The notes under the pieces were generated by a model. It was not told where the DNA came from and searched no databases. It was given only the letters and a program-made list of their open reading frames with translations. A stretch of DNA of 61,365 nt from a virus (Duplodnaviria; Caudoviricetes). A program made the position numbers and the translations under genes. Shown one piece after another: positions 3,806 through 61,365 of the stretch. The DNA lies in the IMG/VR virus record IMGVR_UViG_3300008510_000002, positions 1 to 61,365 of that record; one strand, written 5' to 3'. Each line of letters begins with the position of its first letter. Position 1 is the stretch's first letter.

Positions 3806-5370
3806 TTCACCTCCAATGCGGCAACCTTGGCTTCAAGGGCTTCGATCCGCCGCATTGCCTCTTGCAGGGCCCCGATAGCGGCGTGGTACATGTCGTTGGA
3901 GAACACCGCTTTCAGGGGGGTTCCGTCTTTTGGCGTTTCGCCAAACCCACGGTTGTCCACCAACTCCGGCGCAACCCGCTCAACCTGTTGCGCGATGACA
4001 CCAATGGTGTCCCCGCTGTGGTCCTGGTCCTTGTATTTGAACGTGACGATCTCAATCGCCTTAATCAAGTTCCAGTAAGACGGTGCAGGTTTGATGTCGG
4101 TTTTGACCCGGGCGTCTGAGAGATTGACGTTGTTGCCGGAGTAGTTGGCAACACCACCGTCCGACTGAACGTAGAAACGAAAGCCGTTGTTGATCGCGTT
4201 TTCGTTGTAATAGTGGAAAGAGTTGTAAGTCGTGGCTTGGTTGATCACCACCCCCCACTGTCCGCCTACGGCGAACTTATAGCCCACCCCAGAACTTAGG
4301 GATCCATCCGTAGTTCCAAGCAACAAATCACCACTGCTGGTGATGCGGGCGCGTTCAATAGCGCCACCAGACTGCCAAATCTGGATCGGTCCCGCTCCGT
4401 CTTGACGAGCACCCATACTTGGGAGAGCAGCGTCATTAACATAAGAGAAAATTTTTGCGTTTGTGGTTGTGCTGGTGCCAACCGCAAGGTTGCCGGAGGC
4501 ATCCAGCGTCATCGCCTGGGTGAAGCTGATCGCGTTGCCAGCGGTGCCAGAGGGGGCGGTGAACCAGCGGTGCTGGCCCAGCACTTGCGAGTAGTAAGAC
4601 GCAGCGGCAGTTGTTTTATAAATCCAATTTGTGTTGTCGTTGTAAGTGTTGGCGGCAATGACCGGATATAGCCCCGCAACGACACTTGCACCGCTGCTGT
4701 ACTGAAGCTCTAGTGCTCGGAAGTTTGCCCCCCAAGCACTCGGCGTCACCCCGAGGCCGAGGTTGCCGGAGGCGTCCAGCGTCATCGCCACGGCGGCGTT
4801 GGTAACAAAAAACAACGAGGACGCTGCCTCGGTCCCCATGACCATGCTTCCGGTCTGGGCCATCACCGAATTGCCGCCTCGGGGGGCGTTTGCGCCCGAA
4901 CCGATCAGGATGTAGTTGGACGCACTGGCGCTGTCTTGGATTCTGGTCTGCCCCGCGACATGCAGGTCCACAACCGCCCCGAGCGTGACGAAGTCCGACC
5001 CGTTCCACGCCACCACCGCCATGCGCCCTGCGGGCACCACCACGCCCGTCGTCGGGCCCACGCCGACGATCTTGACCCCGAAGCCCCCAGTGGTGCCGTT
5101 GATGACCACGTAGACCTTGCTGGACGCCGGAGCCGTGATGGTGCGCTGCGCGGCCCGGGAGCCCGTGCAGTTGAGGATCATCTGCCTCGCCTGATCCGCC
5201 ATCCCGTTGGCTGTCGTCAGGATGACATCGGTATCTGCGCTGAGAGTCGTCGTCCCTGCAATCGCCGGATCGACCAAGTCGATCATCCCGTTGCTGACGG
5301 TGGAGCCCCAGCCGGTATCGCCCAGGCCGGGGTTGGAGAGGCGGAGGTTGGTGGTGAAGCTGGTTGGCAT
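3802..5370 (-). CDS. Tail fiber with C-terminal intramolecular chaperone (peptidase S74-like)
   Basis: SDARVKTDI autocleavage-type motif, GVIAQQVE, terminal coiled coil; repeated MTLDASGNL units. Confidence 0.88.
   Translation of the reverse strand: MPTSFTTNLRLSNPGLGDTGWGSTVSNGMIDLVDPAIAGTTTLSADTDVILTTANGMADQARQMILNCTGSRAAQRTITAPASSKVYVVINGTTGGFGVKIVGVGPTTGVVVPAGRMAVVAWNGSDFVTLGAVVDLHVAGQTRIQDSASASNYILIGSGANAPRGGNSVMAQTGSMVMGTEAASSLFFVTNAAVAMTLDASGNLGLGVTPSAWGANFRALELQYSSGASVVAGLYPVIAANTYNDNTNWIYKTTAAASYYSQVLGQHRWFTAPSGTAGNAISFTQAMTLDASGNLAVGTSTTTNAKIFSYVNDAALPSMGARQDGAGPIQIWQSGGAIERARITSSGDLLLGTTDGSLSSGVGYKFAVGGQWGVVINQATTYNSFHYYNENAINNGFRFYVQSDGGVANYSGNNVNLSDARVKTDIKPAPSYWNLIKAIEIVTFKYKDQDHSGDTIGVIAQQVERVAPELVDNRGFGETPKDGTPLKAVFSNDMYHAAIGALQEAMRRIEALEAKVAALEVK
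4487..4789. repeat. 30-bp direct repeat pair in the tail fiber gene (4487-4516, 4760-4789)
   Basis: AGGTTGCCGGAGGC(A/G)TCCAGCGTCATCGCC, one mismatch; encodes AMTLDASGNL. Confidence 0.85.
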
Positions 5371-24332: not shown

Positions 24333-24896
24333 ATGGCTACACGTAAGATCGAGACCCCGGAGAGTCTCATTGCCGCGGCTATTGCCGCGGCACAAGCGGC
24401 AATTGCCGCTACCACCCGCGCGCGCGGGTTCTCCAAGACCTTTTGCGCGAAGGTACTCACTCTCGGCGCGCTCGGCGCCGCAGATGCCGCGCAAGCGGCC
24501 GAGACCCTTGCCAAGGGGCTAGAAGCCCTTGGCACGGGCGGGAAGGGGTACGCTTCGAATGCGAAGCGTATCCTCTCGGCAGGGCAGGTTGCCTGTCAAA
24601 AGGCGCTTGACTTCTGCACTGACCCCGCCAACGGCGGGTTCATGGCCCCGGGGAATTTGTTTAAGAAATTCCCCGATGATTTTCCGGCACTGTCCGACTC
24701 CGGTCGGACAAAGAAAACCACGGCCGGGGCCGTGGCGGAGGGAGTTGATCTCGGTCAACCTTCGGGTTGGCTGATTGCACTTGAGACCATCCGGGCGCGG
24801 GTTCCGGGCCGGAAAGACTGGCCATCCGGGGACATCATCGCGATGCAAGAATCGGCATCAGTGATGCTGGCGCTAATCAAGCGCAACAAGACCTAA
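24333..24896 (+). CDS. Hypothetical early protein
   Basis: 187 aa; AAGGGG RBS; followed by hairpin. Confidence 0.8.
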   Translation: MATRKIETPESLIAAAIAAAQAAIAATTRARGFSKTFCAKVLTLGALGAADAAQAAETLAKGLEALGTGGKGYASNAKRILSAGQVACQKALDFCTDPANGGFMAPGNLFKKFPDDFPALSDSGRTKKTTAGAVAEGVDLGQPSGWLIALETIRARVPGRKDWPSGDIIAMQESASVMLALIKRNKT

Positions 24897-32181: not shown

Positions 32182-32239
32182 TTTACTGTTAAACGTGTTT
32201 AACCCAGCCCCCTACGGGGGGCATCTCTAGGAGCACACC

Positions 32240-32437
32240 ATGCCCTTACGACAAGACGAAAGTATCCCCGTGTGGATCCTGTACCACAGATCAGACTACG
32301 GTCTGGAGATGGAAGGTATATTCACGCACAAGGTGCAGGCCGAGGCTGCACTGCGTGAGTACAAAAAAGAAGTGCGCGATCCGAGTAGGTGGTATCTACA
32401 AGAGAAGTACACTTTCGCTCACGACAACAACTGCTAA
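32240..32437 (+). CDS. Hypothetical protein
   Basis: 65 aa; CTAGGAG RBS; lower GC. Confidence 0.7.
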   Translation: MPLRQDESIPVWILYHRSDYGLEMEGIFTHKVQAEAALREYKKEVRDPSRWYLQEKYTFAHDNNC

Positions 32438-32462
32438 CCCACAGCCCAACTAGGAGAAAGAC

Positions 32463-40265: not shown

Positions 40266-40570
40266 GAACCCCGGAAAACGCAGTAAAAGCCAAGTGCGTC
40301 GAGATCATCAAGAAGTACAAGGCGTACCACTTCTTCCCAGCACAGAACGGCTACGGGCGTGCAGGTATCCCCGACATCATTGTCTGCTTTCGCGGCCTAT
40401 TCTTGGGCATCGAATGCAAAGCCGGATTCAACAAGCCCACTGCCCTTCAAGAGCGTGAGATGGCAGAGATCCACAAGGCCGGGGGCAGCGCCATGGTGGT
40501 GCGGGAAGACACGATTGAACTACTGGAACAGTGGTTTATGACGACAACCCAACTGCTGGCGAGGGACTGA
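40262..40570 (+). CDS. VRR-NUC domain nuclease
   Basis: E..VK, GIPDII, GIECKA, PTALQ, AGG. Confidence 0.88.
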   Translation: MRTPENAVKAKCVEIIKKYKAYHFFPAQNGYGRAGIPDIIVCFRGLFLGIECKAGFNKPTALQEREMAEIHKAGGSAMVVREDTIELLEQWFMTTTQLLARD

Positions 40571-42426
40571 TGGAAGTCCTAACAGCGGATATAGAGACCT
40601 ACTACGACAAGGAGTACAGCCTAACGAAGCTCACGACAGAGGAGTACGTCCGCGACCCACGTTTTGAAGTCATCATGGTCGGCTTGCGCTGGCCGGATGG
40701 CCGCACCGAGATCATCGACGGCACCCACCTGGAGATCAAACACCGGTTCGACGAGATCGAGTGGGGCCGCTACGCGGTCCTGTGCCACAACACCATGTTC
40801 GACGCTGCCATCCTGGCGTGGCGCTTCGGTGTGAACCCCGCTGCGTGGCTGGATACCCTGTCCATGGGCCGCGCCATGTTCGGGGCGAGGAACAACTCCC
40901 TGGCGTCGCTCGCCAAGCGCTACAACCTGGAGGACAAGGGCACCACGGTGCAGAACATGATGGGCAGGCGCAGGGCGACCCTGAGCCCTGCCGAGTTCCA
41001 ACAGTACGCCGAGTACTGCCTGCTGGACGTAGAGCTATGCCACCAGCTATGGCAACTCATGTCTACCGGATGGTACAACCTGGGCGAAGTTGACAACCGT
41101 GGGCCGTTCCCCCTACAGGAACTAAAGCTCATCGACCTGCACATCCGCATGTTCACGGAGCCCATGCTGCGGTTGAACCTGCCCAAGCTCGAAGCGCACT
41201 TGGAAGAGGTACTGGCGCACAAGGCTGCGCTGATGCAGCGGGTCACGGTGGACAAGACTGAGTTGATGTCGAACGCTCGGTTCGCCGTCCTCCTTGAGGA
41301 CCTGGGCGTGGAGGTGCCCACCAAGATCAGCCCGACCACGGGGAAGCAGACCTTCGCCTTCGCCAAGACCGACCCCGGCATGAAGGCGCTGCTGGAGCAC
41401 GAATCGCCCGAGGTGCAGGCACTGGCCGCTGCCCGCCTGGGTGTGAAGAGCACCCTGGAGGAGACGAGAACTCAGCGGTTCATTGACATTGCCAAACGGG
41501 ATCCACGGTTCCCCGTGCCGTTGAAGTACGCTTATGCGCGTACGAAGCGCTCGTCGGGGGGCGATGGGATCAACCTCCAGAACTTACCTTCTCGCGGCAA
41601 CGTCGGGCTCAAGGAGTGCATCGAGGCCCCGCCCGGGTGGGTGATCATCAACTGCGACTCGTCCAACATCGAAGCCCGCATGCTGGCGTGGTGGGCTGGG
41701 CAGGATGACCTCGTGCAAGATTTCGCCAACGGCGTCGATGTGTACTGCAAACAAGGGACCTCAATCTTTGGAAGAACCATCACTAAAGCGGATACTAAAG
41801 AACGCTTCACATCAAAAACCGTCGTACTTGGTTGCGGATATTCCACGGGGGCGGCAAAATTACAGGTAACTCTTAAGGCGGCTAAGCCTTCAGTTGATCT
41901 ACCTATTGAAGAATGCGAGCGGATTATCAGGGTGTATCGTGATAGCGTACCGAAGATCGTGAACCTGTGGTCCGAGGGTGAAAAAGCCATCCGCGCCATG
42001 TACGATGAAAACAGCATGTGGTTCGGTCGGGAAGGAGTGGTAAGGATTGAAGGCAAGCGTGGGGTACTTTTACCCAGCGGCCTATACATCAGCTACCCGC
42101 AACTTCACCGCGTGTTCGACTCCGGCAGGCACCGTTGGCAGTACAAGGACGACACAGGTCTGGTGGACCTTTATGGTGGTAAGCTGGTGGAGAACGTCTG
42201 TCAAGCCCTTGCTCGGATCATCGTCATGTACCAGATGTTGCGCATTGCGCGTAAACTCCCGACGAAGCTCACCGTGCACGACAGCGTCGTTGCCCTGGCC
42301 CGGGAAGAAGAGGTCGATGCTGCTCGGGCCTACGTCGAGGAGTGCATGCGGTGGGTGCCCGCCTGGGCCAAGGGCTGTCCGATCAATTGCGAATCCGGCG
42401 TGGGCCGGAACTACGGGGAAGCATGA
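40570..42426 (+). CDS. Family A DNA polymerase with 3'-5' exonuclease domain
   Basis: Exo I DIET, Exo II HNTMFD, Exo III YCLLD; NLQN; motif A DSSNIEAR; motif B R...K...LG..Y; motif C VHD. Confidence 0.93.
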   Translation: MEVLTADIETYYDKEYSLTKLTTEEYVRDPRFEVIMVGLRWPDGRTEIIDGTHLEIKHRFDEIEWGRYAVLCHNTMFDAAILAWRFGVNPAAWLDTLSMGRAMFGARNNSLASLAKRYNLEDKGTTVQNMMGRRRATLSPAEFQQYAEYCLLDVELCHQLWQLMSTGWYNLGEVDNRGPFPLQELKLIDLHIRMFTEPMLRLNLPKLEAHLEEVLAHKAALMQRVTVDKTELMSNARFAVLLEDLGVEVPTKISPTTGKQTFAFAKTDPGMKALLEHESPEVQALAAARLGVKSTLEETRTQRFIDIAKRDPRFPVPLKYAYARTKRSSGGDGINLQNLPSRGNVGLKECIEAPPGWVIINCDSSNIEARMLAWWAGQDDLVQDFANGVDVYCKQGTSIFGRTITKADTKERFTSKTVVLGCGYSTGAAKLQVTLKAAKPSVDLPIEECERIIRVYRDSVPKIVNLWSEGEKAIRAMYDENSMWFGREGVVRIEGKRGVLLPSGLYISYPQLHRVFDSGRHRWQYKDDTGLVDLYGGKLVENVCQALARIIVMYQMLRIARKLPTKLTVHDSVVALAREEEVDAARAYVEECMRWVPAWAKGCPINCESGVGRNYGEA

Positions 42427-44503: not shown

Positions 44504-46075
44504 ATGCAGATCATCGAGAACAAGGCGCTTTTGCTCCGGCTTCGCAACCCGGAGCGGGTACTCAACACTGTGCCGAAAGCACAGGTGGTGGCGCAGCATC
44601 CCCAGGGTGCTGATGTCCTGGTCTGGTGGGGCCTCGACGAAGCGCGGGTGCTGCGCAATCTGGGTGTCAAGAACGTACCCTCACCCATCCTAGGCCGCTA
44701 CAAGTGGCCTGGGATCTTCAAGCCGTTCAATCACCAGAAGACAACTGCGGCGTTCTTGACGATGAACAAGCGCGCGTTTTGCTTCAATTCCCAAGGGACA
44801 GGAAAAACGGCAAGTATTGCGTGGGCCGCAGACTACCTAATGGAGCGCAAGATCATACGTAGAGCGCTGGTGATCTGCCCACTGTCCATCATGGTGCCAG
44901 CTTGGCAAGCTGATCTGTTCAAGACGCTCATGCACCGCAGGGTGGATGTGGCCTACGGGGACCGGAAGAAGCGGGCCAAGGTCATCGCGTCGGACGCTGA
45001 GTTTGTGGTGATCAACTTCGATGGTGTTGAGACGGTCTTGGAAGAACTCAAGGCCGGGGGCTTCGACCTCATCATCATCGACGAAGCGAACGCGGTCAAG
45101 ACCGCGACGACCAAAAGATGGAAGGCTATCAACGGACTTCTTGGCCCTGACACATGGCTTTGGATGGCGACCGGCACCCCGGCCTCGCAGGCACCCACCG
45201 ATGCCTACGGGCTTGCAAAGATGATGGACCCGAAGTCGGTGCCCAGCTACTTCTACTCGTTCCGGGACCGTGTGATGAACAAGATCACGCAGTTCAAGTG
45301 GAAAGCGAAGTCAAATGCTCAGGAGGTGGTAAACCAAGTTCTCCAGCCCGCTATCCGGTTCGCTAAGGAAGACTGCTTAGACTTGCCTGAACTGCTTTAC
45401 ACAACCCGGGAAGTGCCGCTGACACCGCAGCAGTCGAAGTACTACAAACTGTTGAAGGAGCAGTTCATCATGGCAGCGGGCGGTGAGACCGTTACATCGG
45501 TCAATGCTGCTACCAACCTCAACAAACTGCTCCAGGTATCTTGCGGTGCGGTGTATTCCGACGACGGCAACTCTGTCGAGTTCGACATCACTACCCGCTA
45601 CAACGTGTTGTTAGAAGCCATCGAGGAAAGCACTCACAAGGTGCTGGTGTTCGTCCCGTTCCGGCACACGATCAAAGTGCTCCACGAGAGGCTCAAGAAG
45701 GACGAACTCACCGTCGAGATCATCGACGGCAGCGTGCCCGTGGGGCAGCGCAACAAGATCTTCGCGGACTTCCAGACCCAGCCCGAGCCCAGGGTACTGC
45801 TCATCCAGCCTGCGGCGGCTTCGCACGGCGTGACCCTGCATGCGGCCAACACCGTCGTCTGGTGGGGGCCGGTGACATCGAACGAGACCTACCACCAAGC
45901 CAACGCTCGGGTGCACCGCTCGGGCCAGAAGAACCCCTGCCTCGTGGTCAGGCTTTGCGGGACAGAGGTGGAGCGCAAGCTCTACGATGCGTTGGACGCG
46001 AAGACCGAGGACATGAGCAGCCTGCTCGACCTCTACCGACAGGAGGTGCTTGACACGCCCAAAGTTGCCAAGTAG
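44504..46075 (+). CDS. SNF2-family (SF2) helicase
   Basis: QGTGKT, ICP, IIDEA, TGTP, HGVTL, QANARVHRSGQ. Confidence 0.92.
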   Translation: MQIIENKALLLRLRNPERVLNTVPKAQVVAQHPQGADVLVWWGLDEARVLRNLGVKNVPSPILGRYKWPGIFKPFNHQKTTAAFLTMNKRAFCFNSQGTGKTASIAWAADYLMERKIIRRALVICPLSIMVPAWQADLFKTLMHRRVDVAYGDRKKRAKVIASDAEFVVINFDGVETVLEELKAGGFDLIIIDEANAVKTATTKRWKAINGLLGPDTWLWMATGTPASQAPTDAYGLAKMMDPKSVPSYFYSFRDRVMNKITQFKWKAKSNAQEVVNQVLQPAIRFAKEDCLDLPELLYTTREVPLTPQQSKYYKLLKEQFIMAAGGETVTSVNAATNLNKLLQVSCGAVYSDDGNSVEFDITTRYNVLLEAIEESTHKVLVFVPFRHTIKVLHERLKKDELTVEIIDGSVPVGQRNKIFADFQTQPEPRVLLIQPAAASHGVTLHAANTVVWWGPVTSNETYHQANARVHRSGQKNPCLVVRLCGTEVERKLYDALDAKTEDMSSLLDLYRQEVLDTPKVAK

Positions 46076-46078
46076 ACT
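46050..46078 (+). promoter_or_regulatory. Sigma70-type promoter
   Basis: TTGACA-17 nt-TAGACT overlapping the helicase gene end. Confidence 0.7.
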
Positions 46079-46104
46079 TTGAACCCTCAACCCTAGGAGA
46101 TCCC

Positions 46105-46515
46105 ATGGAGCCCACTACCGAGGCACCTCAAGTGCCCACTGAAAAGCTCGTCAAGGCGTACATCAAGATGCGCGATGCCCGCGCCGTGCTGTCTGCCGAG
46201 TACGAAGCCAAGGACAAAGAGATCAAAGATCAGATGGAACTGATCGAACACACGCTGCTGGATGTCTGCAAGCGTGCCGGTGCTGACAGCATCAAGACCG
46301 GTGCAGGCACCATCATCCGTGGCGTCAAGACTTCTTACTGGACTTCCGACTGGGAGTCGATGCACAACTTCATCAAGGAGAACCAAGCACTCGATCTGCT
46401 CGAACGTCGTATCGCTCAACGCGCTATGGGGGAGTTCCTCAAAGCAAATCCAGACAAGATGCCCAAGGGCATGAATGTCGAAACGAAGTACAGTGTCACT
46501 GTTAGGAGAGCCTGA
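46105..46515 (+). CDS. Replication-module protein with N-terminal coiled coil
   Basis: 136 aa; SIKTGAGT, DWE, LLERRI; CTAGGAG RBS. Confidence 0.75.
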   Translation: MEPTTEAPQVPTEKLVKAYIKMRDARAVLSAEYEAKDKEIKDQMELIEHTLLDVCKRAGADSIKTGAGTIIRGVKTSYWTSDWESMHNFIKENQALDLLERRIAQRAMGEFLKANPDKMPKGMNVETKYSVTVRRA

Positions 46516-47514
46516 ATGTCTGAACTGACTCTTTTCCAGAACGGAAGCCAACTGCCCGCGCACCTGAAGCGCGGCGAACTCAGCGACTTGACGAAGTCGC
46601 TCATGGGCACCAGCAGCAAGCGCATCAGCTTGGAGGGCGGTGTGTTCCGCCTCATCGTCGGTGGGCAGGAAGTTGCCAAGAACGAGAACCGGTCGATGAA
46701 CATCGTCGTGGTCCGTGCCGCGAACGCCAACTCCCGCACCTACTACCCGGAAACCTACGTGAAGGGCCAGAAGGCTCGCCCCGTGTGCTGGTCCGACGAC
46801 GGCAAGGCCCCGCATGCCAGCGTCAAGGCGCCGCAGGCCAAGTCTTGCGACCAGTGCCCGCAGAACATCAAGGGCTCCGGCACCCGGGCGGACTCCCGCG
46901 CCTGCCGCTTCCAACGTCGTCTGGCCGTGCTGCTGGAGAACGACATGGACGGTGACATCTACGCGATGAACATCCCGGCGCAGTCGATCTTCAGCCAGGG
47001 TGAAGGTCGCAAGATGGGCCTGCAGCAATACGCCCGCTTCCTGGGTGAGCATGGCATCGAGGTCAACGCGGTGGTGACCGAGTTGCGCTTCGACACCGAG
47101 GCCGAAGGCGTCAAGGTGACGTTCAGCGCCGTGCGTCCGCTGGAGGAAGCCGAGTACCACACGGTGGTCGGTCGCAAGGACGAGCCCGCTGCCATCGACG
47201 CTGTGACCATGACGGTCGGTGAGATGGATGGTGCACCTGAGGATGGCACCTCGGCACCTGTGGCTCCCCCGGCTCCGGCCTCGATGCCTGTGTTCTCCGC
47301 CGCGCCTGCGGCCCCTGTGGCGGCTCCGAAGCCCACACCCAAGCCCACCCCTGCGCCGAGCGCGTTCAAGGTCACCAAGCCTGCTCCTGCCCCCGTGGCG
47401 GCGCCCGCGCCTGTGGTCGAAGAGCCCGCCGTGCGTGAAGCCAAGGCCCCTGCCCCTGCGGTGCCTGATGTCAGCAGCATCCTGTCGCAGTGGGGCGACG
47501 ACGCTGACGACTGA
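46516..47514 (+). CDS. Putative single-stranded DNA-binding protein
   Basis: CWS.DG, C..CP, ACR motifs; Pro/Ala linker; acidic tail WGDDADD; strongly biased codons. Confidence 0.65.
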   Translation: MSELTLFQNGSQLPAHLKRGELSDLTKSLMGTSSKRISLEGGVFRLIVGGQEVAKNENRSMNIVVVRAANANSRTYYPETYVKGQKARPVCWSDDGKAPHASVKAPQAKSCDQCPQNIKGSGTRADSRACRFQRRLAVLLENDMDGDIYAMNIPAQSIFSQGEGRKMGLQQYARFLGEHGIEVNAVVTELRFDTEAEGVKVTFSAVRPLEEAEYHTVVGRKDEPAAIDAVTMTVGEMDGAPEDGTSAPVAPPAPASMPVFSAAPAAPVAAPKPTPKPTPAPSAFKVTKPAPAPVAAPAPVVEEPAVREAKAPAPAVPDVSSILSQWGDDADD

Positions 47515-47523
47515 ACGAGTTTC

Positions 47524-47611
47524 GGGGCGGCGGCAAGCGCCGTGAGCGTGGTGTCCTCCCTGAGGTCTCCTGCCCCTACGCAATAGTCCCGGGTTGCGCC
47601 GGGACCGCCCC
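47524..47611 (+). ncRNA. Candidate multi-stem small RNA with anti-Shine-Dalgarno loop
   Basis: Closing stem GGGGCG/CGCCCC, three internal hairpins, loop containing TCCTCCCT and TCTCCT. Confidence 0.5.
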
Positions 47612-47621
47612 ACCTCCTACC

Positions 47622-47855
47622 ATGCCCTACACCACGAAGATCGTTCGGCTCAACGCCGACGCAGACCCCAACCTGCTTGGCGTGCAACTCGGGCGGCTGT
47701 GCATCTACCGGCAGGTCCCGGTGGCTGATGTAGCCCAAGCCCTGAACGTCACGAAGGCGGCGGTCTACCGCTGGTTCTCTGGTCAGCGAGATGTGTCCAA
47801 GCACTTGCGCGAGCGGGTGCTGGCGTACTATCGTTCGACCCTGCCCCCGGCGTGA
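47622..47855 (+). CDS. Cro/XRE-like helix-turn-helix regulator
   Basis: VADVAQALNVTKAAVYRWFSG. Confidence 0.8.
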   Translation: MPYTTKIVRLNADADPNLLGVQLGRLCIYRQVPVADVAQALNVTKAAVYRWFSGQRDVSKHLRERVLAYYRSTLPPA

Positions 47856-47912
47856 ACCCCATCCAGCTAGCTCCCCCGGTGCGTGATGCACCCGGGCTAC
47901 TCCCGTGCCCCC

Positions 47913-50720
47913 ATGGCCTTCACAGACTTCTTCAGAAGCATACTCCCACAAGGCACGCGCTATGCACTACGGCTGATCCACAAACCCACAGACAAACGTC
48001 GTAATATCTTCTCCTCCTCATTCGAGGAGATGGGGGAACAAGCGGAAGAGCTATCCCGATCTGGGCTTGACCTGTATTACGCAACCGCTGGATTTGGGGC
48101 ACAACAAAAGGCGAACGCCGAGAACGCTGTAGCAAAGCGCGAACTGTACATAGACGTAGATTGCGGAGAGGGAAAACCGTACCAAGACAAAGCAGAAGGA
48201 CTCAATGCCCTGCGCCAGTTCTGCACGACCGTGGGCTTGCCCCGGCCCACCCTGATCGACTCAGGTAACGGCATCCACGTTCACTGGTTTTTCACGGACA
48301 GCGTGGCCCTGCATGAATGGCATGCGGTAGCCAACGCGCTAAAAGACCGGTGCAAAGCCGAAGGATTTATAGTTGACGGTGGATGCACCGCCGACTACGT
48401 CCGGGTACTGAGGATCCCCGGGACGATCAATACCAAGAATGGTGCGACGGTCACGCTGCTGACCCCGGTCAAGCACCACAACTTCAATACCCTGCGCGAC
48501 ATCATCGGCGTCTCTGTGTCCGAAGCGGACATGTTCGCCAAGGCGCGTGCACTGTCCAAGGGGTCCATGGAGGAGACCAAGAAGCTCTTCGTTGACCCCA
48601 ACAAGACCAACAAGTTTCACACGATCTGGATGAAGTCTGTGGGCGGTTTCGGCTGCTCGCAGATCGACTACGCTGCCCGGAACCAAGAGACGCTGCCCGA
48701 GCCCCTGTGGCGGGGCGTGCTGTCCATCGCGCAGTTCTGCGAAGACCGGGACTGGGGCATTCATGAGATCTCCAAGGACCACCCCAACTACAGCCCGGAA
48801 GAGACCGAAGCCAAGGCTGCGCTGACGAAGGGCCCCTACACCTGTGAGACGTTCCGGGGCCTGGATGAAGGCGCCCTGTGCGAGAAGTGCCCGCACTACG
48901 GGAAGATCACATCCCCCATCCAGCTTGGCTCAGAGATCAAAGCCTCTACCGAGCCGGTGAAGGTCAAGATCGAAGACCGAGAAGAGACGCTCCCGTCCTA
49001 CCCGCATCCGTTTTTCCGGGGGGCTACTGGTGGTGTCTACATGCATGTTGTGCATTCAGAAGGCAGCAAGTCATTCCATGTCAGTGCCTACGACATCTAC
49101 ATCTACAAGCGGATGCGGGACAGCACCGGTGGGGGCGACACACTCTGGGTCAGGCACCACCTCCCGCACAACGACATACGTGAGTTCACGATCCAGCAAA
49201 GCGAGGTTGCGTCGAAGGACAAATTCCGGGAGTGCATCAACCGTGAAGGTGTCATTGCCTTCGAGGACCGCCAGATAGGCGCCTTGCAACTGCTGTTCAG
49301 CAAGATGATTGAGGATCTACAGAAGGCTGAAAAGGCTGACAACATGAAAGTCAAGTTCGGCTGGACGCCAGACAACACCTTCGTTATCGGGAACCGCGAA
49401 TACACCCGCAACGGCGTGGTGCACAGCCCAACGTCGAAGCCCTTGGAGAACTACGTCAACTGGTTCACGCCGAAGGGCGACATCGAAGAGTGGAAGAGCG
49501 TCATCGCGCTGTACAACACCCCGGATATGGACCTGCATGCAGCCGGTGTGCTCGCAGGGTTCGGCAGTGTCCTGATGAACCTGTCGCCTGAGAACGGCGG
49601 TGTGCTGAACTACTACTCGAAGAAATCGGGGACCGGGAAAACCACCATCCTGCGTATCGCCAGTTCGATCTTTGGGGACCCCCTGAACCTGATGAAGGAC
49701 GCACAGGATACGAAGCTGACCAAGGTCCACCGCATGGGGTTGATGAACGGCATCGTCGTCACCATCGACGAGATGACCAATGCGGACCCAATGGAGTTGT
49801 CTGATCTGCTCTACAACTCTACGCAGGGGCGGGCACGGGACCGCATGCAGTCAAACAGCAACGCAGAGCGCACCAACAATACCCGCTGGAAGCAGATCAC
49901 GCTCTGGTCAAGCAACGCCGCTGTCGAAGACCGGCTGATCTCCATCAAGTCTGACCCACAGGGGGAACTTGCACGGGTGCTGGAGATTCGTCTGGACACC
50001 CCCGTGCCTAGTGATGTGCTCGGTGCGCAGTTGATGTTCAATAAGATCCTGGACAACTACGGGCATGCTGGCGACATCTACATGCGCTACGTGATTCCGC
50101 ACCTGGATGAAGTGAAGCGGATCTGGGAGAATACCCGAGACAAGATCTACAGCATGGAGCGGTGGACGCAGACTGAACGGTACAAGCTCAACGTCGTCAT
50201 CTGCATGGTTGCGGCAGGGTTGATCACGAACAACTTGGGGCTGACTCAGTTCAACATTGCCCGCATCGCCAAGAAGCTCGTTGGCCGGGTCCGCGACCTA
50301 CGCGATGAACTGAAGACCACGGCTACCACGGCATCCAGCACGGTGTCGTCATTCATCAACAAGAACATCAGGAACATCCTGATCGTCAACAAGCGTTCCG
50401 GCACCAGCGGCATCCCGGAAGTGCCGAGGGTAGAACCTCAGGGCGAACTCATCATCAGGTACGAACCCGACACCGATGCACTGTTCATCAACAAGCGTGA
50501 GTTCACGAAGTGGTGTTCGGTCAACTTCATCAACGCCCGGGAGATCGGCGTCCTGTTCAACCAGGAAACCGGAGGCGTCGTCAACGTCACGAAGAAGCGC
50601 ATGGGCGCTGGGTGGCGCACTGACCTGGGGGCGGTTGATGTGCTGGAGTTCCCCAACGCTCGGTCCCTGCTGAACCTCGATGACCTCGATGGATCGTCGC
50701 CTCCCGCACGAACTGCCTGA
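47913..50720 (+). CDS. Primase-helicase fusion (AEP/RepB-like primase, Cys cluster, DUF927-type helicase)
   Basis: IDVD, SGNGIHVHW, RVLRIPGT.N; EPLWRG, C..F..C..C; FGW, SGTGKTT, IDE, SSN. Confidence 0.85.
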   Translation: MAFTDFFRSILPQGTRYALRLIHKPTDKRRNIFSSSFEEMGEQAEELSRSGLDLYYATAGFGAQQKANAENAVAKRELYIDVDCGEGKPYQDKAEGLNALRQFCTTVGLPRPTLIDSGNGIHVHWFFTDSVALHEWHAVANALKDRCKAEGFIVDGGCTADYVRVLRIPGTINTKNGATVTLLTPVKHHNFNTLRDIIGVSVSEADMFAKARALSKGSMEETKKLFVDPNKTNKFHTIWMKSVGGFGCSQIDYAARNQETLPEPLWRGVLSIAQFCEDRDWGIHEISKDHPNYSPEETEAKAALTKGPYTCETFRGLDEGALCEKCPHYGKITSPIQLGSEIKASTEPVKVKIEDREETLPSYPHPFFRGATGGVYMHVVHSEGSKSFHVSAYDIYIYKRMRDSTGGGDTLWVRHHLPHNDIREFTIQQSEVASKDKFRECINREGVIAFEDRQIGALQLLFSKMIEDLQKAEKADNMKVKFGWTPDNTFVIGNREYTRNGVVHSPTSKPLENYVNWFTPKGDIEEWKSVIALYNTPDMDLHAAGVLAGFGSVLMNLSPENGGVLNYYSKKSGTGKTTILRIASSIFGDPLNLMKDAQDTKLTKVHRMGLMNGIVVTIDEMTNADPMELSDLLYNSTQGRARDRMQSNSNAERTNNTRWKQITLWSSNAAVEDRLISIKSDPQGELARVLEIRLDTPVPSDVLGAQLMFNKILDNYGHAGDIYMRYVIPHLDEVKRIWENTRDKIYSMERWTQTERYKLNVVICMVAAGLITNNLGLTQFNIARIAKKLVGRVRDLRDELKTTATTASSTVSSFINKNIRNILIVNKRSGTSGIPEVPRVEPQGELIIRYEPDTDALFINKREFTKWCSVNFINAREIGVLFNQETGGVVNVTKKRMGAGWRTDLGAVDVLEFPNARSLLNLDDLDGSSPPARTA

Positions 50721-50919
50721 GGTCGTCACCATCCGGGGCGTTCAGTACCGCTTGCCGCAGTGGCTGGAGCCCGGGCAGTCCTTCTTCGTGCCGTGCCTGG
50801 ACGCACGCTCCATGGGGTCGGTGATGTCAGGGCGCTACAGCCGCATGGGCTGGAAGACCGCATGGGCTGAGAGGATCGAGAGCGGCTTGCTTGGCATCCG
50901 CGTCTGGCGTGAGGTATAG
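50689..50919 (+). CDS. Small putative DNA-binding protein, resembles 36191-36433
   Basis: GQSFFVP...GIRVWR pattern. Confidence 0.65.
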   Translation: MDRRLPHELPEVVTIRGVQYRLPQWLEPGQSFFVPCLDARSMGSVMSGRYSRMGWKTAWAERIESGLLGIRVWREV

Positions 50920-50926
50920 TCCACCC

Positions 50927-51001
50927 GCTGGCCGCATGTTGGGCCGGTGTCTCCCTCCTAGTTGGCCCCCGGGTTGAGCTTGCTCCTCGGGGGCATTTTT
51001 T
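50927..51001 (+). ncRNA. Candidate trans-acting antisense sRNA
   Basis: TTGGCA-18 nt-TATAGT upstream (50891-50920); 5' hairpin, unpaired TGTCTCCCTCCTAGTT seed, terminator. Confidence 0.55.
50965..51001 (+). terminator. Intrinsic terminator at the convergence of early and late units
   Basis: GCCCCCGGG...CTCGGGGGC then ATTTTTT. Confidence 0.75.
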
Positions 51002-54000
51002 CACCGGAGGTCGATCTCCGCTTGGTTGATCTGCGCCTGCCGGCGCAGGGCGTAGCTGATCTGCGCAAGCTCGTTCTGCTGCGCACGCAAGGTGTTCATG
51101 ATCTGGCGGCGCTCGTCAGGCGGGATGTCCTTCGCACGGTCAACAACCTGCGCTTCGCGGTTCAAGTCCCGGATGCTCTCCATCACCGCCTTGGTGGCTT
51201 CGTAAACGCTGTATCTACCGTAGTTCTCAAGCAGGTATGCGTCGGCCTTTTCCGGTGCAGTCTGCACCAGTCGGTTGTAGGTGTTGTACGCCTGAGTAAC
51301 TTTGTCCTCGAAGTCGTACATGTCATCCAGGAACCGAGTACCCACAGGATCCTTCATGAAGGCACTGGCACCGGTAAGCTGAGCAGCCAAGTGCTGGTGC
51401 AGTGGACGATCTGTCCGCGTCGGGTTGACCATCACATCAGCCACAGACAGCGCCACCCCCGCCGACATGCCCAGCACACCCCGGATCGCGTTCTCGATCT
51501 TGATGGGGGAAAGCTCAATGCCAAGCTGGGCCAGAGCTTCCGCCGATGCTTTGACGGCTTCCGAGGTGCCGGTGCCGAAGCGCTGCGAGGGGTCCAGCCG
51601 CAGTTGGGATTGCGACTCCAGAGGCCGGCCCAGGAAGAACGAGTGGTTCATCATGTTCTCAAGGAACGGCTTCACAAGCTGAGGCGTCAGGTTCGGCGCC
51701 CAGAAGATGTCCACGCCCGACAGCATCAACTCCCGCGCCACCCTGAGGGCATCGCGCTCTTCGGGGGTCCCCTGGAGCTTGTAGTACTGCACCACCCGTT
51801 CAGGGATAGCCTTGAAGAAGAACGACAGTTCAGGCGGCACAGGGATGACCGGTGTGAAGCCAAGCTCCTTGCCGTAGGGCAGGACCCAGTTGCGGTCCCG
51901 CACATGGTCAGGCAGGTTCTGGTACTCCTCATCGTCGGACATCAGCAGGGCGTAGCTGAGCCCCATGGCGGTCAGGATGCCCATCCGCTTGAAGAACAGG
52001 TTGCGAGCGTAACCCGTGGCAACGCCGACCGTCTTACCGCCAGCAGCGGCCAGGAGAAGCTTGTCCATCGACCGGGCGTAGGCGTTGAAGAAGGGGATCG
52101 TGCGGATGAAGAAGTCCGCCGTAGTGGAGGCGCCCCGCCGTGAGAAGTTGATGATCTCCCGTGCGCGGGACTCGGCCAGCGCCACGTCGCCGGTCTCCTT
52201 CATGGTCTGGTCGTAGATGGCTTGGCGTACGGACACATCCGATGCCTTGGCACCCGCCTCCAGGATGCGCAGGATGGCGCGGCCCAGGGACCGCTTGCTG
52301 ATGCCTGTCTCCTCGAAGATGTTGCGGACGTTGCCACCTTCCACGGTGTCATAGGCTGGTACAACCCCATGCTGCGCAAGTTTTGCCACCCCCGGACTGC
52401 GCGTACCTTTGATCTCGTTCCACCAGTTGCGCGGCATGTTAGAGAGGATGCGAGGAATCAACGCCATGGGGTTCTTCACCCCCGAATGGACGTAACCACG
52501 GGTAATGTCGTCAGAAATCTGCTTGACTGCGAAGGCCGGTGTAATGGTGACGCCGATACGGAGGACCTGGGACAGTTTCTGCGCCGCACGCATGAAGCTG
52601 CCAATCTGCATGGACTTGGCCCCCGCAAAAGCAGCCAGATTCGCCGGGTCAGGGACGTAGTAGAACTTCTGCTGGCCTTTCTGCCAAGACGATACCACTG
52701 CACCCTTCTGACTTTGGGGCATTTGGTCTCGACCGCGAGGCAAATACTTGGCTGCACCCACAAGCTCCAGATCGCGCAGGGCTCGGCCTACGGCCTCGGC
52801 TTTCATCCCTTCCCGTGTCATCCACTCCATGAGACCGACGAAGTTCTTGATCGGGTTCTCGGTCTGTCGTTCGGAAGAGCCTTTGAACTCCTTCATCTGC
52901 TTGAAGGCGGCGAGCTTGAAGTTGGTGGACACACCCCCTTGCCCCTGTGAAACATAGAACTTGTCCAGTTCTTCAATGCGTTTGAAAGGGGTATAGGCCG
53001 TGGCTTCTTTCCACTCTTTTGCCTTGTCCTTGGTGATGCGCCCTGTAGCTACCAAGAAGTCAAGTCCAGCAAAACGAATGGCGTCCATCTTTTCGCTCAC
53101 ATCTTTGATGAAAGCGTCATTGCTGAACTTCTCGTTGGCTGCTTCAGCTTCCTCAGGCGTGAGGTAAAACTCCAGTTTCACTTCCCGAGCATCGTTGTCC
53201 TTCATGAGTTCGTACTCACGACGGCCCGCCAAGACTTCACCGATCTCCTTGACAAACTGCCCAGGTGCCTGCCCTCGGCGTTGGGCTTCTGCCGCTATGT
53301 CGCGCAGGACACCCTCAAAGGAAATCTTTTGCCCGTTGTAGTCAAGTTCTGTAATGCGCGAAAGTCCGCTGGGGTCTACTACGATGGTGCCTACCCGAAG
53401 CATCTCTTGGGCGAAGCGCGGAGCATCCAGCGCCTGGGACAGCAGAACGACGGGGTTCATGTTCCCCGAGTTGTCGCGGATGCTGTTGCTGTAGAGGTAG
53501 CCCATCTCAGCCTCGACCCCGGCCAAGGAGTCAGTGGCTTGTGCACGCAGCCCGATGGTCTTGCGCTCGCCCAGCGTCCGCCCGATGGCATCACCAGCAG
53601 TGGCTTCGGTGCGTTCACCGACAAGCGCGTCAGAAAGAGTCATCCCCGCAGCAGATTCTGCTTGCCTAAAATACGAGGTAAGAGGTTCATCGAACACGCC
53701 TTCGGAGATTGTCATCAACTCTGCAAGTGCGGAACCTTCCCTTTTGTTCAGTTTGAGAATTTGGGATATTAGGTCGAAGAACCTGCCGAGGAAAGTGCCC
53801 CCAGTAGGACTAGGTGTAGACGCAAGCCAGTTTTGGAAGTCAGCATTCACGAGCCCATAGGTTATAAGCTCATAGGGGTCTTTGAGTGCGCGTTTGAATA
53901 GTTGCTCTTGGAAGTCGCTAAGCTCACCAGCTTTATTCTGTTCTCTAAATATGGGGACGAGATCTCTGTGTAGCAGCTTCAGCTTCATAGCCGCACTGCT

Positions 54001-59965: not shown

Positions 59966-61365
59966 GCTCTCCTCTGGAGCTTGTTCATCAGGGCGTAGAG
60001 CGCCGGGGCTCCGCCCGCTTGCTTGACCTGGGCACGGGGCACGTACATCTCACCATTGGAGACCCTGGCCGGGGTGCTCCCTTCGATTGTCGCAGGGATG
60101 TCGTCGCTTGTGCCAGTTCCCGGGCCCCGGATCAGCTTGGATTGGGGGAGAAGTTGGGCGATTCCACGCGGGCCTCCCGCACCGTCCACAGCCTTCTTGG
60201 TCATCACGAAACCGCCGTCCTCCATCTGCATCGGACGCTGATGGGTACCCGTGACGACACCACCTTGGGCGTAGGCTTGCATGAGCCCGCCGTTGGCTGC
60301 GTACCGAGCGATGGGGCCGTAGGCACCCTGCACCATGGTGCGGGTGGTAGGTCTTGGCGCCGCCGCGACGCCTGTGTAGCCACCCCCACGAGGAGGCTGT
60401 TTGTCGAAGTAGGACAGCAGAGCGCCGAGCCCCGCAAGGCCCGCACGGGACGAGAGAACGTCTTTGCCAATACCGATGGCCTCTTTCGCCACCCCGGGCA
60501 GCCAGCTAGGCAGTTGCGCCTTGAACATGGCCTTGTCCCATTCCGGGACGCCCGACTTTACCCCTTCTCCAAGCTCCATACCTCCGGTGCTTGCATCGCC
60601 AATGGACGACGTAGGAGGTGGCGGCATGTCGAGTACCGACTCTGGGTACACTGTTGTCGGTGGTAACCCGCCAGGAGAAAGAATCTCACTTGTGAATGGA
60701 TCAATTGCATTACCGCCAAAATCAAAAATTGGCGCCGCAGCCGACGCGGGCAAGGTTTCAGAGAGAATCAATTCTTGAATTCCCGGCGACAACGGTGGTG
60801 GCAGACTGCCCATTGCGGGCGCCGCAGGTGCTGCCATCGGGCCAGCGCCCCCCAGCGAACTTGTCAAGCCTTCCAGGCGAGGTCCGAGGAAATTTACCGT
60901 GCCGTACGCTGCGACTGCCGGCAGGACGAATTCCTTGAAGAAATCCCCAAAGCCGCTGACTTCGACCGGCGTTTGGTTGACCACCTCACCGGTTGGCGTC
61001 CTTAGCCCGATGGTCTGCCGATCTCTGTCGATCTGTTCGCCTTTGGTAACGAAATCGTAGCCTTCGGCTTTCTTTTGCTCAATGAACTGCAGGAATTCAG
61101 GCGCGGGAACTACATCGTAGCCGCCTTCATGGGTGGCGTAAACTTGCGTCTCAAACGGCCCTTGATAGCCAAGCTGACGGGCGACGCTTTGCCAGTTACC
61201 GACATCCTTAAGGCCGGCAATCGTGCTGCCGTAGGGATTCTCTGCGCCAAATTCGCCCGCTTGAGTAAACTGCGACCAATACGGATCAGACGGTGCTATC
61301 CACTCCGATCTTGGGATGGGGGCGAAAGGGTCAGCGGCAGGGGCGGCAGGGGCAGGGGCAGGGGC
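59962..61365 (-). CDS. 3' part of the wrap-around internal virion protein gene
   Basis: Frame is open from 61365 (APAPAPAAPAADPF...) into VVNQTP; C-terminal GPGTGTSDDIPA...SNGE domain. Confidence 0.78.
   Translation of the reverse strand, partial: APAPAPAAPAADPFAPIPRSEWIAPSDPYWSQFTQAGEFGAENPYGSTIAGLKDVGNWQSVARQLGYQGPFETQVYATHEGGYDVVPAPEFLQFIEQKKAEGYDFVTKGEQIDRDRQTIGLRTPTGEVVNQTPVEVSGFGDFFKEFVLPAVAAYGTVNFLGPRLEGLTSSLGGAGPMAAPAAPAMGSLPPPLSPGIQELILSETLPASAAAPIFDFGGNAIDPFTSEILSPGGLPPTTVYPESVLDMPPPPTSSIGDASTGGMELGEGVKSGVPEWDKAMFKAQLPSWLPGVAKEAIGIGKDVLSSRAGLAGLGALLSYFDKQPPRGGGYTGVAAAPRPTTRTMVQGAYGPIARYAANGGLMQAYAQGGVVTGTHQRPMQMEDGGFVMTKKAVDGAGGPRGIAQLLPQSKLIRGPGTGTSDDIPATIEGSTPARVSNGEMYVPRAQVKQAGGAPALYALMNKLQRRA

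Follow-up and report, generated by a model that had tools for sequence, protein, structure and literature searches.

A conserved cloverleaf RNA element from an uncultured phage (Duplodnaviria; Caudoviricetes) is presented here. The DNA analysed, called the window below, is the whole IMG/VR virus record IMGVR_UViG_3300008510_000002; it has 61,365 bp, a G+C content of 61% and an estimated completeness of 97%. The element is best drawn as a 91-nucleotide (nt) unit on the plus strand, positions 47524-47614, in the 107-nt gap between a gene for a protein resembling single-stranded DNA-binding protein (SSB) and a short helix-turn-helix (HTH) gene. Comparison with relatives shows it to be a real, conserved and strand-specific RNA of tRNA-like shape, for which a role in RNA processing is likely. 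The first-pass annotation of this DNA had drawn four stems between 47524 and 47611. All four are present in the sequence and make up the minimum-free-energy fold of 47515-47625, while the unit extends 3 nt past 47611, to an ACC at 47612-47614.

The fold energy alone is unremarkable. The element has a G+C content of 73%, and the fold of 47515-47625 has an energy of -47.2 kcal/mol with a z-score of -1.10 on the plus strand (-0.36 on the minus strand); 31 of 200 shuffled sequences fold equally well, which is not beyond chance for G+C-rich DNA. It is the comparison across relatives, and not the energy, that gives the fold strong support. Homologues were sought among loci retrieved with exact sequence patterns or with the primase protein encoded downstream. 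The primase search, which was blind to the element, gave 19 loci, and the element is present in 18 of them; the remaining one, L002, begins inside the primase gene and has no upstream DNA. The exact-pattern scan of viral contigs gave 29 stretches, two of them unrelated, and that of metagenome contigs gave 23, namely 13 clear homologues, one divergent copy (L059) and nine unrelated or doubtful stretches. Further members are found on one contig of a metagenome-assembled genome (MAG) labelled Paucibacter (L070, with copies A and B) and in one more lineage, L116.

In a MAFFT alignment of 23 distinct sequences, 97.4% of the cells hold standard pairs and 11 of the 24 pairs change on both sides. None of 500 column shuffles reaches any of five measures, and pairing falls to 46-55% when the 3' partners are slid by 1-3 columns. 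Alignment of 24 sequences to a covariance model of the element, R1, gives 98.2% paired cells and 14 of 24 compensatory pairs, again with no shuffle of 500 equalling it, although an alignment guided by the model is biased towards structure. Conservation of the structure in relatives, proposed at the first pass as a check on the prediction, is thereby confirmed. All four helices covary. By our tally, about 31 of the 562 cells in the model-aligned set are G-U pairs, and the conserved fold therefore belongs to RNA of the plus strand. The lengths of the element in homologues (80, 88, 89, 91, 92, 93 and 97 nt) differ by numbers that are not multiples of three, and a coding function is thereby ruled out. 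Identity in the distant clade is 84-87% for the element, compared with 67-75% for the flanking coding DNA.

The closing helix, in the position of a tRNA acceptor stem, is formed by GGGGCGG (47524-47530), which pairs with 47605/6-47611, the 3' strand being CGCCCC at 47606-47611. Compensatory changes occur in three of its seven pairs; the helix is wholly different in L070 copy B (GAGCGAC/GTCGCTC) and reads GGGGUGG/CCACCCC in L116. The D-like arm (47531-47542) consists of a CGGC stem strand, an AAGC loop and GCCG. Here all cells (100%) pair, three of four pairs are compensatory, the innermost is U-G in 13 sequences, and the stem is CCGC/GCGG in L070 copy A. The connector UGA (47543-47545) lies within a near-invariant GUGA, of which T20 and G21 are invariant in alignment A2.

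The anticodon-like arm (47546-47581) varies in length and sequence among homologues. Its outer stem of 6 bp, GCGUGG/CUACGC, is compensatory in all six pairs, with L059 (GCUCGACC/GGUCGAGC) as a striking case. The 24-nt loop (47552-47575) contains 17 pyrimidines, an inner hairpin CCUC/GAGG (47555-47565) and the motif GUCUCC (47565-47570). The last is the only string of the arm that is widely kept, in 21 of 24 distinct sequences by our reading of A2 and L116. It is missing in L070 copy B, L059 and L116, and is preceded by GAGG, AAGG or GAGUG, which resemble a Shine-Dalgarno (SD) sequence.

After a spacer AAUA (47582-47585), part of a conserved (A/G)AUAG with A60, A62 and G63 invariant in A2, comes the T-like arm (47586-47605), with a stem of 7 bp, GUCCCGG/CCGGGAC, and a 6-nt loop, GUUGCG. 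Its core CCGGGUUGCGCCGG does not differ among the 18 loci given by the primase search, which was independent of the element. Compensatory change is seen in two outer pairs (U-A, C-G, and once more U-A in L070 copy A). The single-stranded ACC tail (47612-47614), at the position of the tRNA discriminator, C74 and C75, is invariant in 17 of 17 sequences of alignment A1, which were not selected for it. Both L070 copies have ACC, L116 has ACCA and L059 has CAC instead. On the 5' side, a spacer of 9 nt (47515-47523; 5-9 nt in homologues) separates the element from the stop codon of the SSB-like gene (47512-47514). On the 3' side (47615-47624) a C/A-rich leader of 7 nt without an SD sequence runs to the ATG of the HTH gene at 47622, and the start context (A/C)ACCATG is kept across homologues.

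The element is surrounded by a plus-strand block of replication and recombination genes. A family A DNA polymerase (40531-42426) is followed, in this order, by genes for a PD-(D/E)XK nuclease, a 3'-5' exonuclease, an SNF2 helicase and a protein of 136 amino acids. Next to the element are the SSB-like gene (46516-47514; 332 amino acids with an acidic tail), the SD-less HTH gene (47622-47855; 77 amino acids) and the gene of a DUF927 primase-helicase (47883-50720). No sigma-70-like promoter is found between 46050-46078 and 50891-50920, the nearest promoter-like site being 1.45 kb upstream of the element, and no terminator-like site adjoins it. The element is therefore made as part of a longer message, from which it would have to be excised before it could act as a small RNA.

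Members of the family are also found outside this phage lineage, in at least two unrelated phage-like contexts. On the L070 contig two cloverleaves stand head to tail at 4987-5077 and 5087-5166, only 9 nt apart; they have different closing helices and arms, and the same T-like arm and ACC. They are located between a gene for an RNase T-like exonuclease and a crAss001_48-like gene, in a phage-like module that also has a YqaJ recombinase, an H-NS-like gene and an HNH gene. The divergent copy of L059 is found just upstream of a gene with a weak match to RusA (E 0.0012, below the Pfam cut-off). Proteins of the window have no relative in the L070 or L059 loci at E<=1e-4. A survey of 151 genomes of the family of the Paucibacter MAG gave an R1 match in the MAG itself only, under strict filters that left few candidates to be scored. 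It was also observed, as a single case, that the loop UCUCCCUC of L070 copy A is complementary over 8 nt to GAGGGAGA, the ribosome site of the HNH gene at 6824.

Cultured phages have no DNA match to the element or to 46000-51100, and the best match of the DNA polymerase among them is 36% identical. The phage lineage carrying the element is known from water, wastewater and soil metagenomes. Three distant relatives with the same gene order, whose primases are 52-54% identical, are without the cloverleaf. In L107 (2239-2245) the SSB-like and HTH genes overlap by stop and start codon (TGAGATG), with nothing between them. In L108 (about 2215-2260) a terminator-like hairpin lies between the two genes, and L114 (2111-2180) has a Y-shaped structure with a closing stem of 8 bp followed by GCC. 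Public sequencing data were also consulted (18 runs, all as assembled contigs), and the four compared with the window (X1, X2, X7 and X11) contain relatives of the stretch. A contig of the wastewater library X2 joins position 47514 to 47799 with 267 other letters between, so that in this relative a different sequence replaces the element and most of the HTH gene.

Comparison with known RNA families was made with Rfam 15, the Rfam/Infernal scan having been proposed in the first-pass annotation. At gathering thresholds no match was obtained in the whole window. At E<=10 the only match in 47480-47660 is a 23-nt stretch of long non-coding RNA noise, with no tRNA, tmRNA or C4 among the results. The loci L114 and L070 gave no Rfam match either. 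As a positive control, the C4 model (RF01695) finds the c4 RNA of phage P1 at 68.8 bits, above its gathering threshold of 45 bits; the analogy with C4 drawn earlier has no support from this model, which does not match the element. In the reverse direction, R1 scores P1 c4 at only 0.9 bits. Within the window R1 finds one copy, at 91.2 bits, and the next best hit has 14.7 bits (E 0.74). Since no Rfam family matches and R1 barely scores P1 c4, the element is an RNA family of its own, outside all families of Rfam 15.

The arrangement of the conserved parts allows us to propose that the element is a tRNA-like processing element. It would be transcribed as an internal part of the plus-strand replication-gene operon, and its cloverleaf would be recognised by the tRNA-end machinery of the host. 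RNase P would cut on the 5' side of G47524, the predicted 5' end of the mature RNA, and cleavage and trimming on the other side would leave ...CCCC-ACC(A). By these cuts the SSB-like part of the message would be parted from the HTH-primase part, and an RNA of about 91 nt, compact and stable, would be set free; its variable, pyrimidine-rich arm would be the natural working part. A processing role is likely, and we give this scheme about an even chance of being right. The cleavages, the stability of the product and any activity of the released RNA are inferred.

According to the review PMC11143913, the determinants of RNase P recognition include G+1/C+72, a purine discriminator with C74 and C75 pairing with GGU of the RNase P RNA (P15), and a stack of acceptor and T stems that ends in a hairpin. 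In our alignments the first pair is G-C in 23 of 24 sequences, the exception being L059 with its degenerate 5' strand, and ACC is invariant in A1. This makes the element compatible with RNase P recognition and is not a proof of cleavage. The parts that do not vary are those read by a tRNA-end enzyme, and the ends follow the logic of P1 C4; for these reasons the processing model is favoured. The tandem pair of L070, spaced by 9 nt as tRNA genes are, fits excised products better than a translational device acting in cis. In addition, the terminator-like hairpin at the same spot in L108 makes a transcript boundary plausible there.

Several observations weigh against this proposal. The absence of the cloverleaf from L107, L108 and L114 indicates that the element is dispensable for the operon. 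Contigs from the RNA libraries X7 (47461-47637) and X11 (47374-47772) span both borders of the element; these could be precursor RNA or DNA, as contigs cannot show RNA ends, strand or level. The T-like loop of 6 nt (GUUGCG) is not a canonical T-loop, the D-loop is without GG, the stacked helix has 13-14 bp compared with 12 bp in tRNAs, and position -1 is mostly occupied by C. For those members found by DNA patterns, the T-like arm is invariant by construction.

A wider form of the proposal, which we regard as rather improbable, is that the element is a reusable phage cassette on a tRNA scaffold. The closing helix, the D-like and T-like arms and ACC would form the constant part, which would use host tRNA-processing enzymes to cut operon messages and stabilise the product. 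The variable arm would be swappable, as a riboregulator or as a decoy for a factor that binds ribosomes or tRNA; arrays would be possible, as the L070 tandem suggests, and the cassette would move between unrelated phages. In a bolder version still, the tRNA mimic, placed 6-25 nt before start codons without SD sequences, might itself help to load ribosomes.

Alternative explanations for the element should be compared with the processing model. An aberrant but true tRNA gene, or a decaying tRNA pseudogene, would account for the cloverleaf outline, the closing helix of 7 bp, the ACC(A) tail and the tandem pair in one contig. However, ARAGORN finds no tRNA or tmRNA gene in the window, and neither the tRNA nor the tmRNA model of Rfam has a match at E<=10. 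The loop in the anticodon position has 24 nt here and from 10 to about 28 nt in homologues, compared with 7 nt in tRNA, and neither the T-like loop GUUGCG nor the D-like loop AAGC has the consensus of its tRNA counterpart. Compensatory change across clades also indicates selection on the fold and not decay, which leaves this explanation extremely improbable. Nearly as improbable is an element acting as DNA beside the primase gene, whether as an origin of replication, as a site of single-strand initiation or as a protein-binding palindrome. The neighbouring SSB-like and primase-helicase genes would suit such a site. However, the approximately 31 G-U cells of 562 would be A-C mismatches on the opposite strand, the homologues of L070 and L059 are found in recombination modules without a primase, and a tRNA-like ACC tail would be meaningless for DNA. 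Another possibility is that the RNA is not cut and acts in cis. The closing helix would bring two sites close together, the stop codon that ends the SSB-like gene 9 nt upstream and the start of the HTH gene, which has no SD sequence, and would so couple reinitiation to termination. Otherwise the element would serve as a standby platform for ribosomes, or would stabilise the upstream message at its 3' end. The SD-less downstream gene starts 6-25 nt after ACC in the clade of the window, L116, L059 and L070, the loop has SD-like GAGG, AAGG or GGAGG, and the overlap TGAGATG of the same two genes in L107 is a classic coupling arrangement. However, the HTH gene has no SD sequence in L107, L108 and L114 either, which lack the element or carry something else in its place, so that the element is not needed to explain this feature. 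The L070 tandem pair and the invariant ACC would have no role in cis, and no bacterial precedent for such a device could be cited. An action in cis is judged unlikely.

In the first-pass annotation the element was taken to be a processed RNA that works as an antisense repressor, by analogy with P1 C4 and P4 CI RNAs. In this explanation the pyrimidine-rich arm would bind SD sequences, blocking ribosome binding or causing premature termination at a set of phage genes. What stands of this is a conserved plus-strand cloverleaf without its own promoter or terminator and with C4-like ends; the targets are unsupported. In its favour, the arm is 74% pyrimidine, and CCUCC- or UCUCC-type strings occur in it both in the window and in the two L070 copies, A (GUCUCCCUCC) and B (ACCUCCCUGA); many early genes of the plus strand use GGAGA-type ribosome sites. 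A small RNA (sRNA) gene at 50915-51001 has the same GUCUCC and good matches to ribosome sites, so the phage does seem to use RNAs directed at ribosome-binding sites. A constant scaffold with a varying arm is also what would be expected of a swappable targeting module. However, GGAGAC, the complement of GUCUCC, is not enriched (36 observed, 39.9 expected), and GUCUCC itself is absent from the three members named above. Perfect complements of at least 9 nt occur at about the estimated chance frequency, with none at orthologous start sites in five genomes. Among 17 homologues with a parsable arm (that of L070 copy A was unparsed), only scattered single matches, and no recurrent complement, are seen within -300/+400 nt, the interval that contains the sites of C4 and CI, in a search for perfect matches of at least 7 nt, shorter or G-U-containing sites being outside its reach. 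A genome-wide duplex scan is dominated by chance duplexes of G+C-rich sequence and gives no recurrent target. Because the C4 sites are only 7-8 nt long, an antisense role keeps some probability; nothing found here supports it, and we hold it to be unlikely.

The individual pairings proposed earlier do not hold up. The seed GUGGUGUCCUCC is not conserved, the same stretch in homologues reading GUAAUGGCCUCG, GGGGGCUCCUUC or AGUGUCCUUUGC, and four of its 12 bases lie in the outer stem of the anticodon-like arm and another four in the inner hairpin. Its pairing of 11 out of 12 positions with GGAGCACACCAU at 32229-32240 is arithmetically right but at chance level. With G-U allowed, 100 such matches are observed in 493 candidate start regions, compared with a mean of 110 (standard deviation 40) for shuffled arms, and 105 of 200 shuffles reach the observed number. 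The gene of 65 amino acids at 32240 has no homologue in any of the five related phage records searched, all of which have retained the element; for four of these the estimated completeness is 100%. The GGAACACC start sites at 24333, 24945 and 29685 do exist but pair mainly with stem bases. Two other candidates were considered. A start site preceded by GGGGGAGAC, common to the window (34768) and the relatives G153 and G155, was dropped, because its pairing extends over 6-7 nt only, it falls within the last coding part of the gene before it, and it was not seen in G154 or G156. The string GGUCUCCU pairs over 8-9 bp with the ribosome site (46093-46100) of the gene for the 136-residue protein in some clades, which is within chance and weak in the L006/L008 type. 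Separately, a start context (G)GA(A/G)CACC recurs on the plus strand directly before ATG or GTG at 24333, 24945, 29685 and 32240. The SD-less HTH gene at 47622 likewise has ACACCATG as its context. Single examples are found in the relatives G153 and G156.

The second element of the first-pass annotation, placed at 50927 and described there as a related cloverleaf, is located 3.3 kb downstream of 47524-47614. R1 gives no match there at E<=10, and the sequence has the form of a promoter-to-terminator sRNA. A sigma-70-like promoter, TTGGCA-18-TATAGT (50891-50920), precedes the sRNA on the plus strand (50915-51001), which has a covarying 5' hairpin, a single-stranded seed GUCUCC(CUCC)UAGUU (GUCUCCCUCCUAGUUGG) and a T-tailed terminator ending at about 51001. 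The strings GGTGTC(C)TCCCT and CCCGGGTTG are indeed common to both elements, as noted earlier, and both RNAs, on the same strand, have the motifs GUCUCC, UAG and CCCGGGUUG in this order in both phage clades. This makes common descent, suggested before as paralogy, or else a shared partner plausible. However, the sRNA has a promoter and terminator of its own and one 5' hairpin, with no closing helix and no ACC. The hallmarks of a stand-alone sRNA, an adjacent promoter and a 3' T-tailed hairpin, are both found at 50915-51001 and neither is found near 47524-47614.

Several repeats in the window were also observed. The string CCCGGGTTG occurs six times (3213, 26534, 33272, 45402, 47588 and 50968), compared with 0.98 expected, and none of 100 shuffles reaches six; four of the sites belong to neither RNA, and these are in coding DNA, with no similar hairpin. 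CTAGGAG is found 5-8 nt before start codons at all five of its non-self sites in the window (28097, 32227, 32450, 36553 and 46093), the sixth site being the complement of the sRNA seed itself. A match of 11 nt to the sRNA seed is located at 32446-32456, before a gene for an ATPase-like protein of 350 amino acids. The relative G155 has CUCCUGUG as its sRNA seed and CACAGGAG at three ribosome sites, of which one precedes the 79%-identical orthologue of the gene at 46105; in the L006/L008 type, however, the seed and the site do not match so simply. The ends of the record (1-50 and 61333-61365) consist of G-rich repeats of the GGGGCAGG type (GGGGCAGGGGCAGGGG...), which may be terminal repeats or the end of a repeat-rich gene.

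It is useful to compare the element with known systems. PMC5499578 lists both P1 C4 and P4 CI RNA as substrates of RNase P. The C4 RNA of P1 and P7 (RF01695) is likewise a phage RNA within an operon that is released by processing and not by its own terminator. Its annotated mature 5' end is the first base of the closing stem and its 3' end is ...CC-ACC, according to the P1 record and the Rfam alignment; the same trait, a closing helix followed by a 3' ACC inside an operon, is found in the present element. However, the C4 RNA is described in that text as a three-way junction with a closing stem of 17 bp, two hairpins and no equivalent of the T-loop, while the present element is a four-way cloverleaf. 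The target sites of C4 (a1/b1 and a2/b2), of 7-8 nt, lie within 50 nt on either side, and no such sites were found flanking the element; the C4 promoters lie about 120 nt upstream, compared with the 1.45 kb given above.

According to PMC4825925, P4 CI is a short RNA made by processing of a longer transcript; it acts inside the operon that encodes it, where it pairs with seqA and seqC, upstream and downstream, and so causes termination. Flanking complements of the seqA/seqC type were not found for our element, the comparison being made with the description of P4 CI and not with the P4 sequence. A similar shape is found in the t-elements of plant mitochondria and in the mascRNA of MALAT1. According to PMC4919922, these are tRNA-shaped modules in long RNA that are cut by RNase P (and RNase Z); the cuts make an end or a start of the flanking RNA and also free a small tRNA-like RNA. 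These are, however, eukaryotic or organellar systems, and a literature search, which was not exhaustive, gave no bacterial or phage example of this type of cloverleaf.

Phage RNAs carved from operons by RNase P are known from a few enterobacterial elements, P1/P7 C4, P4 CI and phi80 M3, which PMC5499578 describes as hairpin-like and without an equivalent of the T-loop. The present element is a full four-arm mimic of tRNA, with strong covariation, and is absent from Rfam 15. The model R1 and its alignment are a ready starting point for an Rfam-style family. If the element is cut as proposed, it would be a bacterial-virus counterpart of the tRNA punctuation seen in mitochondria and in MALAT1, and it would provide a compact and portable processing tag.
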